A stretch of DNA of 11,050 bases. It comes from an archaeon. Its GTDB lineage: Archaea > Asgardarchaeota > Thorarchaeia > Thorarchaeales > Thorarchaeaceae. Shown here in pieces: positions 2,859-11,026 of the stretch. The translations under genes and the position numbers were made by a program. The DNA lies in contig JAJRZD010000066.1 of assembly GCA_024275415.1 (NCBI GenBank), forward strand, positions 1 to 11,050. The letters are read 5' to 3'. The first letter of the stretch is position 1, and each line of letters starts with the position of its first letter. The notes beneath the pieces were generated by a model, which was given only the letters and a program-made list of their open reading frames with translations, was not told the origin of the DNA and ran no database searches.

Positions 2859-3323
2859 ATGAAATTGCAGATACACGAGGATATTCGAATGTCAATCAAA
2901 GAGGAACTGCTTGAAATCATCAAGGGTTCAGAGCAGATAATCTCTGATGAATTGGCTATTCGCTTTATTTTGCTAGTTGGATCGCAGACGACCACAATGA
3001 CGGGACCTATGAGCGATGTTGACATAGCAATCTATGTGAATCCTGACCGCTACTCAAATGACAACCCGAATCTCCAAATCAAACTAGGGGCACTACTTGG
3101 TGATGGACTGAAGAGGGATGATATTGACATCATCATACTCAACGATGCGCCCCCAGCTATGAGATTCAATGTTGTCAAGAATGGCCTCATCCTGTATGTG
3201 AAAGACGAAGGCGAGTATGAGGACTACGTGGTAAGGACTCTCTCGGATTACTATGATTATTCCTATTTTCTCAATCGCCAATTCGAATACGCAAAGGCAT
3301 CTCTAAGTGGTGAATCAAAATGA
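2859..3323 (+). CDS. mntA: Minimal nucleotidyltransferase (MntA-like antitoxin, type VII TA)
   Basis: Exact GSX10DXD motif (GS-QTTTMTGPMS-DVD), plus 'DIDIIILNDAPPAMRFNVVKNGLILY' and 'DYYDY'. ATGA overlap with the downstream HEPN gene. ATG 2889, preceded by GAGG at 2877-2880, may be the real start. Confidence 0.9.
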   Translation: MKLQIHEDIRMSIKEELLEIIKGSEQIISDELAIRFILLVGSQTTTMTGPMSDVDIAIYVNPDRYSNDNPNLQIKLGALLGDGLKRDDIDIIILNDAPPAMRFNVVKNGLILYVKDEGEYEDYVVRTLSDYYDYSYFLNRQFEYAKASLSGESK

Positions 3324-3733
3324 GCGATTCCGAGTTGAAATCACGCGTGCTGTTCCTTCATAATGCTCTTAGAAAACTCTCAGAACTACGCAACAGGACA
3401 CGCGAACAATTCTTGGAAGATTATACAGTAAGTGATACCGTTCTGTATAATCTTCAAGTAGCAATTGAAACTATAACCGACATTGGCAACTACATTCTCA
3501 AGCGAGGAAATCACAAGATTCCCGAAACAAGAGCTGAGGTTTTCAAGCTTCTTTGTCAGCATCGCTATCTGGATCCCTCAATGGAACCCACTCTTATCGA
3601 GATGTCCCGTTTCAGAAACCTACTGGTTCATGGATACACCGCAGTGAACCTGAATATCGTCTACGGGATTCTCACGAATCGCTTAAGTTTCCTGCAACAA
3701 GTTGTGAACCAGCTTGTTAAGGAAATCAAATGA
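3320..3733 (+). CDS. hepT: DUF86/HEPN ribonuclease (HepT-like toxin)
   Basis: 137 aa with the RX4HXY motif (RNLLVHGY) and 'LYNLQVAIETITDIGNYI'. Translationally coupled to the MNT gene. Confidence 0.9.
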   Translation: MSDSELKSRVLFLHNALRKLSELRNRTREQFLEDYTVSDTVLYNLQVAIETITDIGNYILKRGNHKIPETRAEVFKLLCQHRYLDPSMEPTLIEMSRFRNLLVHGYTAVNLNIVYGILTNRLSFLQQVVNQLVKEIK

Positions 3734-3743
3734 GGAAAGTGCG

Positions 3744-3766
3744 GGGCGACCCTTGCGAGGTCGTCC
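3744..3766. terminator. GC-rich hairpin between convergent hepT and vhuU (possible terminator)
   Basis: + strand GGGCGACC-CTTGCGA-GGTCGTCC. On the - strand CGACC/GGUCG is followed by the pyrimidine/U-rich tract CACUUUCCUCAUUUGAUUUCCUU. Confidence 0.35.
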
Positions 3767-3804
3767 AGCCCAACCCGAGTTTCGGTTGAGCCTTCATCCA
3801 CCGC
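3755..3804 (-). ncRNA. Eukaryote-type SECIS element (cis-acting selenocysteine insertion sequence)
   Basis: The - strand reads AUGA-A-GGCUCAACC-GAAACUCG-GGUUGGGCU-G-GA-C. This gives an AUGA/GA non-Watson-Crick core (3797-3794 and 3765-3764), a 9-bp helix (3792-3784 with 3775-3767) and AAA in the apical loop 11 nt after AUGA. A weak lower helix (GGU/ACC, GCG/CGC) is possible. It lies about 80 nt 3' of an in-frame UGA at a known Sec position. Folded by eye only. Confidence 0.8.
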
Positions 3805-3946
3805 CCAGCACTAGTTCCCTTCTTGCTATCTCGCGCCCCTCATCATCAACGATGACCATATGAGCGGCGCAGGATAGTCAGCAGTCATAGCAGCGCACGA
3901 CCATCTCAAGGAGGTTCAGTACGCCTTCCGGTATCTCTTCTGTCAT
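3794..3946 (-). CDS. vhuU: [NiFeSe] hydrogenase small selenopeptide subunit VhuU (not in ORF track)
   Basis: ATG at 3946, 11 nt after the vhuA stop with an AGAAGGA SD-like spacer. Translation: MTEEIPEGVLNLLEMVVRCYDC-U-LSCAAHMVIVDDEGREIARRELVLGGG*. TGA at 3880-3878 is the first ligand of the hydrogenase C-terminal D-P-C/U-x-x-C-x-x-H motif, which VhuA lacks. Stop TGA at 3796-3794. Confidence 0.93.
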
Positions 3947-3957
3947 GGTCCTTCTCT

Positions 3958-5268
3958 CTATATCATTGGTTCTGGCAGTTTCAGGTCGTCAAGAGCATTG
4001 TCCTCGAAGATCTGTCTGGCAGTCGTCAAGAGGCTCTTTTCCAATCCTGCGATGTTGTTGTTTGTGGCAACAATCATGTTTGCCCTTGTGATGATTCCCC
4101 TCTCATCAGTCCAGTAATGATGGATCAGGGTTCCTCGGGGTGCTTCGACACACCCAACACCATCTCCCTTGCGGGGTGCAACATCAGCAAGCTTGATGTC
4201 GGCACTCACGATATCAGGGTCTTTCAGCAGTCCCACGATTTCCTCTAATGATTGCACGAGTTCGATAATTCTTGCCCAGTGGTATGCAAAAGTAGCATGA
4301 ATAGGGCGTCCGAGTGCATCTCGCATCTCTTTCAATGCCTCCTGAGCCAGTGGGGTCGTCATCTCGTCCACAACATTGCATCGTGCAAGAGTGTTGGCTC
4401 GCCAAATGCCCTTGGGATAGCCCTCCGGCTTGTAGTAAACATGAGTGGCGTAAGAATGGTTAGCGACGTATTCCCCATAGTATTTGCGATAGTCCTTTGG
4501 TTTGAAGTCAGCTACGATCTTTCCATCGGGATCCATCACGCGTAGCTTGCCATCGTATATCTCATGCTTGCCATTGTTGTGCATGCCCAGATAATAGGTC
4601 GGAACAATTGCCAACTTGGTGATAGGATCCCAATAGTCCTGTACAACTTTCTTTGCAAGGTCAACCGTTGCAGTAGTCCATTCCAATGCATCTTCGCTAC
4701 GTTTGAGGTATTCATCTCGTTTCTCTTCAGAGAACGGGTGCATGATGCCTCCCGGAATCGAGGTGACGGGATGAATCGCTTTACCCCCTACAGCTGCACA
4801 GAGATCTTGTCCAAACTGCATCATCTGGAGTGCCATCTTTCCCACATCTGGCAGTGCCTTAATGATGGCGACTACATTCCTTTTCGCTGGATCCCCAAGA
4901 GGACCGGCAAGAAAGTCTGGTGCTGCAAGGGCGAAGAAATGGATGGCATGGCTACTGAACTGCTTTGCGTTGATGAGCAGTCTTCGCAGTTTGACTGCAG
5001 CAGGAGGCGGAGTGATCCGCCATGCAGCCTCGACTGCCTTTGTAGAGGCAAGATGATGAGGCTCGGGACAGATGCCACAGATGCGAGGCGCTATACGTAC
5101 AGCCTCCTCCCCGAATCTCCCTTCCAAGAACTTCTCGAAGAACCGAGTGGATGAAACGTTGAACTGGACATCCTTTACTTTTCCGTCTACCCCGATTTTT
5201 AGTGTGAGTTCGCCATGCCCCTCAAGTCGAGTGACCGGGGCAATCTTTACTGTCTTCTCTTCGGTCAA
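3958..5268 (-). CDS. vhuA: F420-non-reducing (Mvh/Vhu-type) hydrogenase large subunit, C-terminally split
   Basis: Motifs TRLEGHG, RxxCGxCxxxH (PRICGICPEPH), HAIHFFALAAPD, GGKAIHP, EAPRGTLIHHY and VATNNN. It ends without the C-terminal DPCxxCxxH motif. TTG start overlaps the vhuG stop (TTGA). Confidence 0.93.
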   Translation of the reverse strand: MTEEKTVKIAPVTRLEGHGELTLKIGVDGKVKDVQFNVSSTRFFEKFLEGRFGEEAVRIAPRICGICPEPHHLASTKAVEAAWRITPPPAAVKLRRLLINAKQFSSHAIHFFALAAPDFLAGPLGDPAKRNVVAIIKALPDVGKMALQMMQFGQDLCAAVGGKAIHPVTSIPGGIMHPFSEEKRDEYLKRSEDALEWTTATVDLAKKVVQDYWDPITKLAIVPTYYLGMHNNGKHEIYDGKLRVMDPDGKIVADFKPKDYRKYYGEYVANHSYATHVYYKPEGYPKGIWRANTLARCNVVDEMTTPLAQEALKEMRDALGRPIHATFAYHWARIIELVQSLEEIVGLLKDPDIVSADIKLADVAPRKGDGVGCVEAPRGTLIHHYWTDERGIITRANMIVATNNNIAGLEKSLLTTARQIFEDNALDDLKLPEPMI

Positions 5269-6176
5269 TGTTCCTGTCCCCTTTCCTTTCCTCGCATCTT
5301 TGATAGATAGGATGCTGCGTAGTCAGTGAAGTAGAATGAGCCAATTGGGTCTGGGAAAGAACCTTTGAGTTCCTCCGGCTCCATCTCCGCAACGGCTCCC
5401 AGTGCAGAGATGATCTTCGCGCCGTGGTCTGACATTATTGGTGTCGGCCCAAAACATCCTTTGCATGGTGTAGTCACAGATGGGCACTGTGCCCCACAAA
5501 GCCCCATAGTCGCGAACCCGAGGCACAAGTAACCCTGATCAAGGATGCACTTGCCTGCCTCTATATTTCCCTCGTAGTTCCGTTTGAACTTCTTGATATG
5601 TTTCTCCTTCCTTTCCATCGGGCACTGGTCACACACTGTCTTTGTGGGAAGGTCGAACGGCTTGTTAGTCAACAGCGCAGTCAGTGCATCAAGAGTGTTC
5701 TCACTAGTAGGCGGGCAACCAGGGAGCAGGACATCACATTCGACTATCTGAGGATTTGGAGTTATGTGTTCCGTGAATCCTGGCATATTCTCATCAGGTA
5801 TCCGAGGGTCTGTGACCGTTTCAGCCTGAATGAACTTCCTCTCTAGGAGTTCCTTTAGATCCCACTGGTTCGCAAGTCCCTGTACGCCCCCAAAGATTGA
5901 GCATGAGCCCCATGCAACAAGAGTCTTGCATTTCTCTCTCATGACCTTCAGGAGATGCAGATCCTCTTTGGTACGGCAGCTTCCTTCAACCATTCCAATA
6001 TGCACTGATCTATTCGGGAGTGCCTCAAGGTCTGCAAGCTTGTAATCCACCACCGTTGGCCAGAACACGATATCGAGCTTTGGCAGTACATCTAATAGAC
6101 CAAGATGCAGATCGACAAGAGACTGGTCGCAACCCCAACATGAACTCAGCTGTGCAAGTGCGATTCGTTTCGCCAT
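5265..6176 (-). CDS. vhuG: F420-non-reducing hydrogenase small Fe-S subunit (MvhG/VhuG)
   Basis: Motifs SSCWGC, VEGS, AWGSCSIFGG, PGCPP, VCDQC and C...QGYLCLG..T...C.A.CP....PC.GC.GP. Located between mvhD and vhuA. Confidence 0.93.
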   Translation of the reverse strand: MAKRIALAQLSSCWGCDQSLVDLHLGLLDVLPKLDIVFWPTVVDYKLADLEALPNRSVHIGMVEGSCRTKEDLHLLKVMREKCKTLVAWGSCSIFGGVQGLANQWDLKELLERKFIQAETVTDPRIPDENMPGFTEHITPNPQIVECDVLLPGCPPTSENTLDALTALLTNKPFDLPTKTVCDQCPMERKEKHIKKFKRNYEGNIEAGKCILDQGYLCLGFATMGLCGAQCPSVTTPCKGCFGPTPIMSDHGAKIISALGAVAEMEPEELKGSFPDPIGSFYFTDYAASYLSKMRGKERGQEH

Positions 6177-6178
6177 TG

Positions 6179-6646
6179 CTATCTCTCCTTGACCTTATTA
6201 GGCCCTATTTTCTTGATACGTTCAACCATTGCAGTGATTCCCTGTGTGAACACATCCCCTTCGGCAGCACTTGCCCATTGGAGGTGTACCCTGTCAGGAT
6301 GTAGCCCCGCCTCTTTGACAAGATGCCTAAGAAGGGTGAATCGCCCTTGCATCTTGAGATTCCCACTTGTGTAGTGACAATCGCCGGGATGGCACCCACT
6401 TATGAGCACACCGTCTGCACCCTGATGAAGTGCGTCTAGAATAAAAGACACATTGATGCGTCCCGTACAGTTTACCCTGATGATTCTAGCATTTGGAGGC
6501 ATTTGCATCCTACTCGTACCGGCCAAGTCAGCTCCTGCATAAGAACACCAGTTACAGCAGAATGCCACGATCCGAGGTTCGAATTCGCCTTTTGCTTTCC
6601 TTTTCGCCTTGGAGGATTTTGTGATTTGCTGGCTTGCTGCCGTCAT
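6179..6646 (-). CDS. mvhD: Hydrogenase-associated [2Fe-2S] subunit MvhD (all-cysteine form)
   Basis: Motifs IVAFCCNWCSYAGADLAG, RIIRVNCTGR, GADGVLISGCHPGDCHY and W.SAAEG. The SD AGGAGGT (6663-6657) is 1 nt from the ORF-track TTG (6655) but 10 nt from ATG 6646, so 6646 is the preferred start. Confidence 0.93.
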   Translation of the reverse strand: MTAASQQITKSSKAKRKAKGEFEPRIVAFCCNWCSYAGADLAGTSRMQMPPNARIIRVNCTGRINVSFILDALHQGADGVLISGCHPGDCHYTSGNLKMQGRFTLLRHLVKEAGLHPDRVHLQWASAAEGDVFTQGITAMVERIKKIGPNKVKER

Positions 6647-6852
6647 GTCGCTCAAGACCTCCTTCGGTCATGTTGGCGCAGCTCGCGCTATTCCCTATTA
6701 ACGTTCGTGATTTCGAAAACAGACAGTATTGTGGGGATTGTGATTGGTATGTACCTTCTTTTCAAGGAGAATGTATGAAACAGATAATACACTACTCTCT
6801 CTAATCTACTATATTTATGTCAGTGCTCAAAATAAGAACTAACTTCATGCGA

Positions 6853-7284: not shown

Positions 7285-9168
7285 CTAAGTTGGCAGGTCG
7301 CGCACTTCCTTTAACAACCCCAATCGCTCAAGAGTTTCTACTTTGGGCATTCCCGTATCTATGTCCCATCCACGTTCTACATAGTAATCATTCAACATCT
7401 CATTGAGTTCTACGATTTGTCCTTTTGATGGACCGACTGGAGCTGGGAAATCAGTGAGTCTTCGGGGTAGCTGGTCATCCTTTCGACGTACTCCTAATCT
7501 GACATTGAACATGCGATTGAGATTGACGACCCGCTCTCCAATCTGTCGGAGCTGTTCTACCGTCATATCGATGTCATTGTGCAGCTTCAGTGCCTTTGCA
7601 ATGTCCTCATAGTAGAACTCGGGCGGTATCTGTGTGCCATATTTGCACAGCCCCACGCTCTCGACCATAACCATGAAGTTCTCACACTCTGCGACCATAA
7701 GTCCCTTGTACTTCGGGCTCAGCCTATCTGCCATCTCGGGAAGGTACTCCTCTCCGAAACGCTCCTTAATGTCGTCATCAAAGCCGACCTCATCAAGGAC
7801 TGGGAATGCATAGAGGTGGTCTGCACCTCTGGCAGCAGTGACCGCGGCAAGTCCCATCGATTTCTGGGCTCTGGGTTCCTGTCCTGCTATCTCCTGTTTC
7901 TTCACGGTCATTACATACTCCTCTGAACCCATGCCGAACTTCTGTGCTGCCCGCCAGCTACCTTCTGCAAGGACATCCCCGATGCCCTCCCTGAAGGCAA
8001 TCATCTTGATTAGCTTGATCATGGACTCGTGATTGCCCCAGCCGAGATCCAACCCGCCAGTTTCTTCTCTCGTTATCACACCATTCTCCCATGCTTCCAT
8101 CGCCCAAGAGATTGTACCGCCAAGCGAGATTGTGTCCATGCCCCATTGGTTCGCTAGGTGATGACCGAAAAGCACCGCCTCGAGGTTATCGATTCCACAA
8201 CGAGACCCCAGCGATGTCTGCGTTTCGAACTCGGGAGACCCTCCTGTATACTTGTAGGGCCCTTTCGGCACCATGGTGTACCTGCCACATCGTTGCAGGC
8301 AACAGAAATCTGCTCGTGGCTTGACGAGATAGTGCTCGTTTATTGCATCACCACCAATCTTCTTGTATCCATCAAATACTCCCTGCTTCATGTTGTATGA
8401 TGGTAGCCTGCCGATGTGCTGCATGAGTTCCACAAGGCTGGTGGTTCCATATCTGGCCCTCTCCGGAGTGAATGGGTTGTCCAGCATCCTTCTATGAAAT
8501 ACATCCATCACTTTCAGGTAGTTCGAGGGGTCAGCGACCTCAATCTTCCCCGTACCTCTCACAGAGATTGCTTTGACCCTCTTAGAGCCCATGACTGCAC
8601 CGAGCCCAGACCTTGCTGATGCACGATCCCTGTCATTCATGATTGCAGCGAAGCGTACAAGGTTCTCTCCGGCTTGTCCTATCGCTAGGGTTCTGGCCAA
8701 CCTCCCGTGCTTCTTTCTCAGGTAGTCATCCGTTTCAAAGACATCGGTTCCCCAGATTTCATCGGCGTCCAGCAAGTCTACTTGATCGTCTTTGATATTG
8801 AGGTATACTGGACTCTTTGAGGCGCCTGTGAAGATGATGACATCATAACCCGCGAACTTCAGCTCGGCTCCCCAGAATCCTGCTGCATGGCTTTCTCCCC
8901 AGACACCTGTCAGTGGTGAGAGCGCAGCTATCACATGACGCGATGCCTGTGGGAACATGGATGCGGTGAGAAGTCCTGTTGCGATGCCTAGGACATTATC
9001 TGGAGATAGAGGATCCGTATCTGGTGGTATCATGTCATAGAGTATTCTTGATAGGTATCCTGCCCCTAAGAGGTAGTCCTTGACTATCTCTTCTTCGACT
9101 GGTCTCTTCTCGATTGTCCCCTTGGTCAGATTTACCCAGAGGTTCGTCCCTCCAATGCCTTTGATCAT
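7285..9168 (-). CDS. aor: Aldehyde:ferredoxin oxidoreductase family (tungstopterin) enzyme
   Basis: 627 aa with motifs SPLTG.WGESHAAGFWGAELKFAGYD, IGQAGENLVRFAAI, GLGAVMGSKRVKAI, PEFET, GMDTIS, GEGI-like REGIGDVLAEG, RGADH, GLCK, DDQLP.R and YY.ERGWD. Substrate cannot be determined from the sequence. Confidence 0.9.
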   Translation of the reverse strand: MIKGIGGTNLWVNLTKGTIEKRPVEEEIVKDYLLGAGYLSRILYDMIPPDTDPLSPDNVLGIATGLLTASMFPQASRHVIAALSPLTGVWGESHAAGFWGAELKFAGYDVIIFTGASKSPVYLNIKDDQVDLLDADEIWGTDVFETDDYLRKKHGRLARTLAIGQAGENLVRFAAIMNDRDRASARSGLGAVMGSKRVKAISVRGTGKIEVADPSNYLKVMDVFHRRMLDNPFTPERARYGTTSLVELMQHIGRLPSYNMKQGVFDGYKKIGGDAINEHYLVKPRADFCCLQRCGRYTMVPKGPYKYTGGSPEFETQTSLGSRCGIDNLEAVLFGHHLANQWGMDTISLGGTISWAMEAWENGVITREETGGLDLGWGNHESMIKLIKMIAFREGIGDVLAEGSWRAAQKFGMGSEEYVMTVKKQEIAGQEPRAQKSMGLAAVTAARGADHLYAFPVLDEVGFDDDIKERFGEEYLPEMADRLSPKYKGLMVAECENFMVMVESVGLCKYGTQIPPEFYYEDIAKALKLHNDIDMTVEQLRQIGERVVNLNRMFNVRLGVRRKDDQLPRRLTDFPAPVGPSKGQIVELNEMLNDYYVERGWDIDTGMPKVETLERLGLLKEVRDLPT

Positions 9169-9656
9169 GCAAATTCCTCCTTTTCGTATAGGATCCCCTC
9201 ATGCCGTGCATAAAGGTCGGCAAGTCGTCCATCTGGATCCTTTTGTTCAAGCCCTTTCCGTGTCGTCGTCCAAATCGCATTAGTAGGACATCGCTTCACA
9301 CATTGTCCACATTGGATACATTTGATAGCCTTTCCAGTGTCTGGGTTGATGGTGATTGCATTATAGGGACAGGCTTTGACGCATTCCCCGTGTCCTACGC
9401 ATCTCTTGTTGTTGACCAGTATGATACCTTTTGATGTCCTCGACAATGCCTGCTCTGGGCACGCCTCGATACATGGGGCATCATCACAATTATGACAGAA
9501 AAGCGGGAAATCCAGCCCCGGCTCTACGCGCAAGACTCTCACCCGTGATTGTGTCGGGCTGATGACCTTGTGATAGAACATACTGCATGTAGAAACGCAG
9601 ATCATGCATCCTGTGCAGACCTCTGGGTCGCCATATACAAACTTGTACTCGTTCAA
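9165..9656 (-). CDS. Four-cluster Fe-S electron-transfer subunit (DmsB/HybA-like; AOR small subunit)
   Basis: Cys groups CTGCMICVSTC, CHNCDDAPCIEACP, CVGHGECVKACP and CIQCGQCVKRCP. ATGA overlaps with both neighbours. Confidence 0.9.
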   Translation of the reverse strand: MNEYKFVYGDPEVCTGCMICVSTCSMFYHKVISPTQSRVRVLRVEPGLDFPLFCHNCDDAPCIEACPEQALSRTSKGIILVNNKRCVGHGECVKACPYNAITINPDTGKAIKCIQCGQCVKRCPTNAIWTTTRKGLEQKDPDGRLADLYARHEGILYEKEEFA

Positions 9657-11026
9657 TCTCGTTCACTCCGTATCTCATTGACCTGTCCCATTGGCTGAAA
9701 CTTACCGTGTCCAGGTTTTATCGTTGCAACATCTCCCTCAAAGACCTTCACTCCTCTTACAAAGGTCATTATTGGTGCACCTTTGAGGCGCAGACCTTCG
9801 TATAATGTCCATCCGCACTTTGAGAACATCATGTCGGCCGTGATAGTTTCCTCTTTGTGAGGGTCTATGATGACAAAATCTGCATCAGACCCGATACGCA
9901 GGGCGCCCTTTCTAGGGTACATTCCGAATATCCTTGCAGGATTGGATGAGGCGACCCTGACGAGCCTACCAAGGGATAGCCTGCCTCGATTGATGCCTTC
10001 CGAGAGCAACACACGTAGGATCATCTGGATTCCATCCACCCCAGACCACGCGTTCCTGATGTCCTCTCGTCCAGCCTCCTTCTTCTCGATTGGACATGGA
10101 GCATGGTCACTCACGACCATCTGGATGGACCCACGAAGCAATGCTGACCAAAGGGCTGCCCTATCCTCCTTTGTCCTGAATGGTGGGTTCAGTTTGCTCC
10201 TCGGGCCGAGCCTATTCATATCGTCCCGATAGAATACGAGGTGATGCGGACAAACTTCTGTTGTAACGGTCACCCCTCGAAGCCGCCCTCTCTCAATCTC
10301 TCGCACTCCATTCTTAGTAGTCACATGAGCAATATGCAGATGTCCCCCTGTCTGTTCAGCAATCGAGATATTCTGTCTGATGGCAATCTGTTCTGCGAGT
10401 GGAGGTCTGGCAAGTGAATGACTTATAGGAGCATCCCATTCTCCCTCCATCTCCTTCGAAAACTCGTCTAGAATCCCTTGATCCTCAGAGTGGATAGTGA
10501 CCATCCCTCCATGCTCGGACACCTCGCTGAGGCTTCTTACCAATGTCCCAGTACTTGCCATGAACGGATCGCATGTGAACGCTTTGAATGCACCAACTCC
10601 CTTCTGCAACATGGTGCTGACCATAGAATAATTGTCTTCAGTGAGCATTCCTGCCGTGAAGGAGAAATCGACAATGGACATCTCGTTGCCAGCCTTTTTC
10701 TTATCCTCCAGAGATGTTTCTGAGTCCATCTGGGAAACAAGGGGCATATCGATTATCGTTGTGACCCCGCCGGCAGCCGCAGCGCGTGAGCCACTGGTAA
10801 AGTCCTCATGAGATGTCATCTTAGGATCGTGGATATGAGCATGTCCATCTATGAGCCCTGGCATCACGATGTTCTTGCGAGCGTCTACTACCTGTTCTGC
10901 CTGTGGCAGGTGCTCATCAGACGCTATGGCGCATATCTGCCCGTCAGTTACGGCTAACCCTCCGGTGACCAGTCCTGATTCAAGAAGCAGCCTTGCATTC
11001 TTGATTACAAGATCCACGGAGGCCAA
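9653..11026 (-). CDS. Cyclic amidohydrolase, allantoinase/hydantoinase-like
   Basis: Motifs PGLIDGHAHIHDP, GSRAAAAGGVTTIIDMP, FKAF, HSED, HIAHVTT, EVCPHHL, KLNPPFR, SDHAPCP and AWSGVDGIQ. The lack of Arg after HxH and the SDHxPCP / AWxG signature fit allantoinase better than dihydroorotase (motif recall). TTG start with a strong SD. Confidence 0.8.
   Translation of the reverse strand: MASVDLVIKNARLLLESGLVTGGLAVTDGQICAIASDEHLPQAEQVVDARKNIVMPGLIDGHAHIHDPKMTSHEDFTSGSRAAAAGGVTTIIDMPLVSQMDSETSLEDKKKAGNEMSIVDFSFTAGMLTEDNYSMVSTMLQKGVGAFKAFTCDPFMASTGTLVRSLSEVSEHGGMVTIHSEDQGILDEFSKEMEGEWDAPISHSLARPPLAEQIAIRQNISIAEQTGGHLHIAHVTTKNGVREIERGRLRGVTVTTEVCPHHLVFYRDDMNRLGPRSKLNPPFRTKEDRAALWSALLRGSIQMVVSDHAPCPIEKKEAGREDIRNAWSGVDGIQMILRVLLSEGINRGRLSLGRLVRVASSNPARIFGMYPRKGALRIGSDADFVIIDPHKEETITADMMFSKCGWTLYEGLRLKGAPIMTFVRGVKVFEGDVATIKPGHGKFQPMGQVNEIRSERD

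Follow-up and report, generated by a model that had tools for sequence, protein, structure and literature searches.

The division of a hydrogenase large subunit into VhuA and a separate peptide, VhuU, which carries selenocysteine (Sec), is textbook knowledge for the Methanococcales. The first Cys of the C-terminal motif of such subunits is a ligand of the nickel, and in [NiFeSe] hydrogenases Sec is found in its place. Both chains are present in the Hdr-Vhu-Fwd assembly of Methanococcus maripaludis (9SFI; PMC13518236). Within the Asgard archaea, VhuU selenoproteins with a eukaryote-like SECIS element (lokiSECIS) were described for the Lokiarchaeota by Mariotti et al. 2016 (PMC4989117), and in VhuU.1 of these organisms the AUGA of the element doubles as the stop codon (PMC4989117). 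More than 400 Asgard genomes were later surveyed by Huang, Xiao & Zhang 2024 (PMC11227280). The main text of that survey lists the Thorarchaeia as Sec users, reports the FrhA/MvhA/VhuU family in 68.3% of the Sec-utilising Asgard archaea (a figure repeated in a 2026 review, PMC13188914) and assigns to the frhA/vhuU genes of the Thorarchaeia a type I eSECIS-like element, in which the loop starts with G[U/G]AAA and the lower stem has the form [U/C]GG_C[C/U][A/G].

We have analysed a stretch of 11,050 nucleotides from a Thorarchaeia archaeon (positions 1 to 11,050 of contig JAJRZD010000066.1, assembly GCA_024275415.1), referred to below as the window, for which a preliminary description had proposed a hidden vhuU gene that completes a split [NiFeSe] hydrogenase. 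The features of the locus are collected in Table 1. The genes vhuD, vhuG, vhuA and vhuU are tightly packed on a single strand (minus), with vhuU as the last one, and the TTG start of vhuA overlaps the vhuG stop. The best NCBIfam matches of the four genes are the families VhuD, VhuG, VhuA and VhuU, all of them under the equivalog cut-offs: VhuA scored 479.6 against a cut-off of 800, and VhuU, with U scored as C, reached 59.0 bits against NF041786 where the cut-off is 70, which is still its best family match. The VhuU and VhuA cut-offs appear to be tuned to the proteins of the Methanococcales, as the VhuA profile has 418 positions, as many as the solved M. maripaludis VhuA has residues. The top PDB matches of VhuA were 9sfi VhuA, 5odc MvhA and 9sw2. 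Gene order (vhuD-G-A-U) and the best family and PDB matches (Mvh/Vhu) fit the earlier proposal that the operon would encode a group 3c (Mvh/Vhu-type, F420-non-reducing) hydrogenase. No hdr gene adjoins the vhu locus of the window. The region upstream on the same strand (7285-11026, minus) contains amidohydrolase, 4Fe-4S ferredoxin-like and aldehyde:ferredoxin oxidoreductase (AOR)-family genes, the ends of which overlap mutually. Elsewhere in the window, a 186-aa ORF on the plus strand (1133-1693) has a radical-SAM part at its N-terminus and a HemD (uroporphyrinogen-III synthase) part at its C-terminus.

Table 1. Features of the vhu locus, in positions of the window
Feature	Position	Strand	Description and basis
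vhuD/mvhD	6179..6655	-	delta subunit, FlpD domain 176 bits; all-Cys, without in-frame TGA
vhuG	5265..6176	-	hydrogenase small subunit; domain and NCBIfam matches
vhuA	3958..5268	-	436-aa [NiFe] hydrogenase large subunit, PF00374; ends before C-terminal metal motif
vhuU	3794..3946	-	predicted 50-codon selenoprotein gene, Sec at codon 23; sequence, translation, homology, conservation
UGA predicted to be read as Sec	3878..3880	-	aligned to Sec of solved VhuU and first Cys of DPCxxCxxH
Eukaryote-like SECIS, three-helix junction	3738..3812	-	folds, pair counts, covariance model
SECIS lower stem	3812-3803 with 3747-3738	-	5' strand is formed by the last vhuU codons
SECIS AUGA core	3797-3794	-	contains vhuU stop
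SECIS upper stem-loop	3792-3767	-	9-bp stem 3792-3784 with 3775-3767, loop GAAACUCG
SECIS 3' GA	3765-3764	-	
SECIS side hairpin	3762-3748	-	4-5 bp, loop CGCAA; between 3' GA and lower stem

The vhuU gene is missing from the standard ORF list of the window. Direct reading and translation of the minus strand gave an ATG at 3946-3944, a TGA as codon 23 at 3880-3878 and a second TGA as stop at 3796-3794. The predicted product is MTEEIPEGVLNLLEMVVRCYDC-U-LSCAAH-MVIVDDEGREIARRELVLGGG, with 29 residues through the His and 21 after it, and would thus supply both the Ni-Fe ligand motif of the C-terminus, U-x-x-C-x-x-H, and a pro-peptide of 21 aa. A motif check of the 436-aa VhuA ORF found the N-terminal RICGIC to be present and DPCxxCxxH to be absent. 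The junction between the genes reads ...ccaatgataTAG agagaaggacc ATGacagaagag... on the minus strand, so that the vhuA TAG (3960-3958) is followed after 11 nt by the vhuU ATG in a different frame. The gap and the change of frame imply that VhuU is not a read-through product of vhuA. The preliminary description had stated that VhuA ends before its C-terminal metal motif and that the small frame 11 nt further on is skipped by standard ORF calling. Sequence and ORF list bear this out, and all its coordinates and counts for vhuU proved correct when the sequence was re-read and translated.

The alignments with solved and unsplit hydrogenases place the split and the TGA precisely. Residues 7-421 of VhuA align to residues 4-417 of the 418-aa M. 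maripaludis VhuA (9sfi_g, 436.6 bits); the split thus lies at the homologous place. In turn, residues 5-30 of VhuU align to residues 2-27 of the 27-aa solved VhuU chain (9sfi_M), which reads ...RAYDPXYSCAAHM at the aligned end and has its X (Sec) opposite codon 23. In unsplit MvhA and FrhA chains VhuU aligns to the C-terminus, where the first Cys of DPCLSCATH falls opposite codon 23, and unsplit homologues from bacterial genomes read ...EGLLNxIEMAFRAYDPCxxCATH... where VhuU has ...EGVLNLLEMVVRCYDC*LSCAAH.... Both the bacterial and the methanogen MvhA proteins have Cys at the position aligned with the TGA. The alignment to the fused homologues thus puts the TGA exactly where the C-terminal motif has its first Cys. 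A split as in the Vhu of the Methanococcales and a TGA at the position of the Ni-ligand Cys had both been put forward before, and both hold. The 21-aa tail of VhuU is homologous to the pro-peptide (C-terminal extension) of FrhA, of which the PDB has entries with the gene length of 405 aa as well as entries of 386 aa that stop at the His.

One could argue that the TGA is a nonsense codon that has cut off the C-terminus of a once-fused large subunit, in which case vhuU would be a decaying pseudogene that yields a 22-aa peptide only; indeed, the standard code stops the frame at codon 23 and ORF callers skip the gene. The distribution of the frame was determined by a six-frame search with the peptide in a same-family set and in 201 genomes sampled across the phylum. 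It was found in 22 of the 24 same-family genomes and in 85 of the 201 sampled Asgard genomes, where 101 of the 103 matches had exactly one in-frame TGA and two had none. The E-values of relatives with one in-frame TGA range from 1e-28 to 1e-9, a recurrence of the predicted gene far beyond chance. In addition, we compared the codon positions of 27 distinct vhuU sequences of equal length after the TGA. The mean pairwise differences at positions 1, 2 and 3 were 0.24, 0.19 and 0.47 past the TGA (0.15, 0.04 and 0.48 before it), and the third-position excess of about twofold past the TGA indicates that this region evolves as coding sequence. A lack of conservation beyond the TGA in relatives, named in the preliminary description as a refuting outcome, is thereby excluded. 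The persistence of amino-acid conservation and third-position bias past the TGA in many genera speaks against a remnant, as do the presence of the same split in the solved, active M. maripaludis enzyme and the maintenance of two vhuU loci in the genome, and we consider such decay extremely unlikely. Instead, we are highly confident that vhuU is a genuine gene encoding the predicted selenium-containing tail of a split hydrogenase in this Thorarchaeia archaeon, a judgement that extends to the complete explanation given below, including SECIS-directed recoding and proteolytic cleavage.

A search for the Sec machinery had been advised in the preliminary description, for which its absence from a complete genome would have been a refutation, and tRNA-Sec, SelD, PSTK, SepSecS and EFSec were all found in the genome. 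More specifically, a PSTK-like gene, tRNA-Sec (57.9 bits, anticodon TCA), Sel_Asgard (NF045535), SepSecS and EFSec are clustered within about 5 kb on contig C69 (8094-12355). SepSecS (449 bits), EFSec/SelB (270 bits) and Sel_Asgard (213 bits) all score over the cut-offs; NF045535 is the Asgard 'putative selenocysteine system protein' family. The PSTK gene remains under the equivalog cut-off, yet PSTK is the best match for its ORF, which is located in the Sec cluster. SelD, on contig C127, is a selenoprotein itself with Sec in GUSCK, and its stop is also TGA. The source genome is a metagenome-assembled genome (MAG) of 127 contigs with an estimated contamination of 4.5%, which could raise the suspicion that the TGA is a sequencing error or that the Sec machinery stems from another organism in the bin. 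However, the presence of the same TGA in about 100 independent assemblies excludes a sequencing error, the Sec cluster holds the Asgard-specific family NF045535 and every one of the contig's nearest relatives is a Thorarchaeota MAG. The probability of an assembly or binning artefact can be considered negligible.

The end of vhuU overlaps a eukaryote-like SECIS element that begins 27 codons downstream of UGA-23. Its three-helix structure was set by hand from single-sequence folds and tested by pair counts on a plain MAFFT alignment, with the partners of the 22-pair structure slid by 1-3 columns as control. Pairing was found in 83.7% of the cells versus 29-47% in the slid controls, the covariation score was 0.489 versus at most 0.173, and compensatory changes occurred in 16 of the 22 pairs (upper stem 8/9, lower stem 7/9). 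The three helices are thus supported by covariation. When 29 relatives were folded independently, the minimum free energy structures of most had the three-helix shape. The fold of the single sequence is little better than that of shuffles (z = -1.7), and in view of this modest energy the support for the SECIS comes from covariation and not from energy. A structure obtained with RNAalifold on the plain MAFFT alignment recovered the upper stem only, mis-paired the flanks and was rejected. The stop codon of vhuU is TGA in all 31 distinct relatives, within ATGA in 30 of them and within TTGA in one (L055); downstream of it the relatives have the two strands of a stem enclosing an A-rich loop, and after the second strand GA, or in some of them AA.

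A covariance model of the element (R1) gave exactly two matches in the 3.5-Mb genome, and these are the two vhuU genes; the model includes gene-specific flanks, so that SECIS elements of selD and other gene families escape it, and it missed the more divergent element of L031. A scan of the whole window with Rfam at E<=1 gave no match, SECIS included, but is not counter-evidence to the element. The genes convergent with vhuU (2859-3733, plus) are an MNT-type nucleotidyltransferase (PF18765) and a HepT RNase (PF01934), which form a toxin-antitoxin-like pair; the HepT gene stops at 3733, 5 nt away from position 3738, where the lower stem of the SECIS ends.

A paralogue of vhuU in the relative G018 (L094:2804-2965, on contig C63 of that genome) has TGT (Cys) instead of TGA and reads DCCLSCSAF. 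Together with the Cys in the fused homologues it makes up a classical Sec/Cys pair. The Cys isoform of Methanococcus (Vhc) is unsplit, unlike the split Cys isoform in G018. At the 3' end of the G018 paralogue there is no AUGA and no SECIS match with R1. Its start is a GTG that overlaps the vhuA stop, and Phe replaces the His of the cleavage site (SCSAF). The existence of this split peptide implies that a Cys enzyme is evidently viable, and Cys22 is already adjacent in the VhuU motif. Hence UGA-23 might be decoded mostly or facultatively as something other than Sec, for instance, when selenium is limiting, as Cys or Trp through near-cognate read-through, in which case the enzyme would be of the [NiFe] and not the [NiFeSe] type. 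This is very unlikely considering that nearly all matches have kept the TGA, that the TGA is always accompanied by a covarying SECIS whereas the Cys paralogue has none, and that the genome contains a complete Sec pathway. Genes, SECIS and machinery together predict the incorporation of selenium into VhuU.

With vhuU as a selenoprotein gene, the following course of events can be proposed. EFSec and Sec-tRNA(Sec), recruited via the SECIS, would insert Sec at UGA-23, the recoding of which would be directed by the eukaryote-like, kink-turn-type element. Since the SECIS core encloses the second UGA and the lower stem includes the last codons, a ribosome that arrives there has likely already melted the element, which would lead to termination. 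The Ni-Fe(Se) site would then be completed by the association of VhuU with VhuA: the N-terminal Cys pair (RICGIC) comes from VhuA and the C-terminal ligands Sec23 and Cys26 from VhuU, together predicted to form a [NiFeSe] site. After insertion of the metal, an endopeptidase of the HycI family would cut after His29 and thereby remove the 21-residue tail. Contig C117 carries a gene for a hydrogenase maturation protease of the HycI family, and considering this gene and the homology to the FrhA pro-peptide, cleavage after His29, with a mature peptide of about 29 aa, is most likely.

The genome contains a second vhu locus, on contig C97 (3877-9628), where hdrB-like and hdrA-like genes are followed by vhuD, vhuG, vhuA (438 aa) and vhuU. 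This second vhuU is 90% identical to that of the window and also has one TGA. It carries a 4-codon insertion in the tail and has a SECIS of its own (84.4 bits with R1). Sec was sought in the HdrA and VhuD genes of the C97 locus and in the VhuD of the window, and the relevant motifs were all Cys.

Sec is preceded by Cys (D-C-U; 3878-3883, minus, in the window) in all 32 distinct Asgard VhuU sequences (L012-L056), and the Cys paralogue has D-C-C, whereas D-P-U, D-P-C or D-L-C is found in the non-Asgard homologues examined (methanococcal VhuU, fused). Cys19 (RCYD) is also nearly invariant in Asgard VhuU. Adjacent Cys and Sec residues are reminiscent of the GCUG end of thioredoxin reductase. By analogy, the dyad may give the Ni site a different chemistry, with a reversible selenenylsulfide that protects or gates the active site; if true, this would constitute a variant [NiFeSe] centre, of which none has been described for any solved hydrogenase. 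On the RNA side, the VhuU SECIS would be a three-way junction by virtue of its conserved GCAA side hairpin. Taken as a pair, these two readings are doubtful. The main texts on the Asgard SECIS (PMC4989117, PMC11227280) mention neither the dyad nor the side hairpin in the parts consulted, and neither is claimed here as new.

For the annotation of this genome the consequence would be a selenium-dependent, Vhu-type hydrogenase that is truncated by the standard procedure, so that metabolic reconstructions that ignore vhuU would label the enzyme defective. The locus is also a clean example of the eukaryote-like SECIS of Asgard archaea: of the two UGA codons of vhuU the first is sense, and the second, within the SECIS core, serves as stop. 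Both points are already in the Asgard literature, and the gain is the correct annotation of the genome rather than a discovery. In fact, the Thorarchaeia vhuU is correct but already known: the earlier statement that VhuU selenoproteins had been reported for Loki archaea agrees with the work of 2016 (PMC4989117), and the Thorarchaeia are covered as well by the Asgard survey of 2024 (PMC11227280). VhuU and an Asgard Sec-system protein are both represented by curated NCBI models.

Compared with the unsplit group 3c MvhA (M. thermolithotrophicus 5ODC and bacterial MvhA-like proteins), the Thorarchaeia enzyme shares the fold family and the C-terminal helix with the metal motif. The unsplit MvhA, however, is one polypeptide, has Cys for Sec and reads DPC where VhuU reads DCU. 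The VhuU/VhuA of the Methanococcales (M. voltae, M. maripaludis; PDB 9SFI/9T1S, PMC13518236) is closer, with a homologous split, a U-x-x-C-A-A-H peptide in which the Sec aligns exactly, and the same gene order vhuD-G-A-U. Nevertheless, the two differ in several respects. The methanococcal VhuU has D-P-U in contrast to D-C-U in the Thorarchaeia, VhuD of the window is all-Cys unlike that of the Methanococcales, and vhuU is not followed by a vhuB polyferredoxin gene, the next ORFs being the MNT/HepT pair on the opposite strand. Furthermore, the SECIS of the window is of the eukaryote-like type (AUGA...GA kink-turn) and overlaps the stop, whereas the euryarchaeal element is of the GAA_A type.

The resemblance to VhuU of the Lokiarchaeota extends to the RNA. 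In both, the peptide is about 50 aa long and contains one Sec, and the SECIS combines AUGA with a 9-bp stem and a loop rich in A; the DC* motif is likewise found in Loki-like relatives (L053-L056). The apical loop has 8 nt in the window (GAAACUCG) versus 11 nt in the Lokiarchaeota, and the 3' core is GA in the window versus the AA reported for Loki VhuU. Finally, both features that the main text of the survey by Huang et al. gives for the Asgard SECIS, the G[U/G]AAA start of the loop and the [U/C]GG_C[C/U][A/G] stem, are present in the window, and with respect to that text nothing essential differs.
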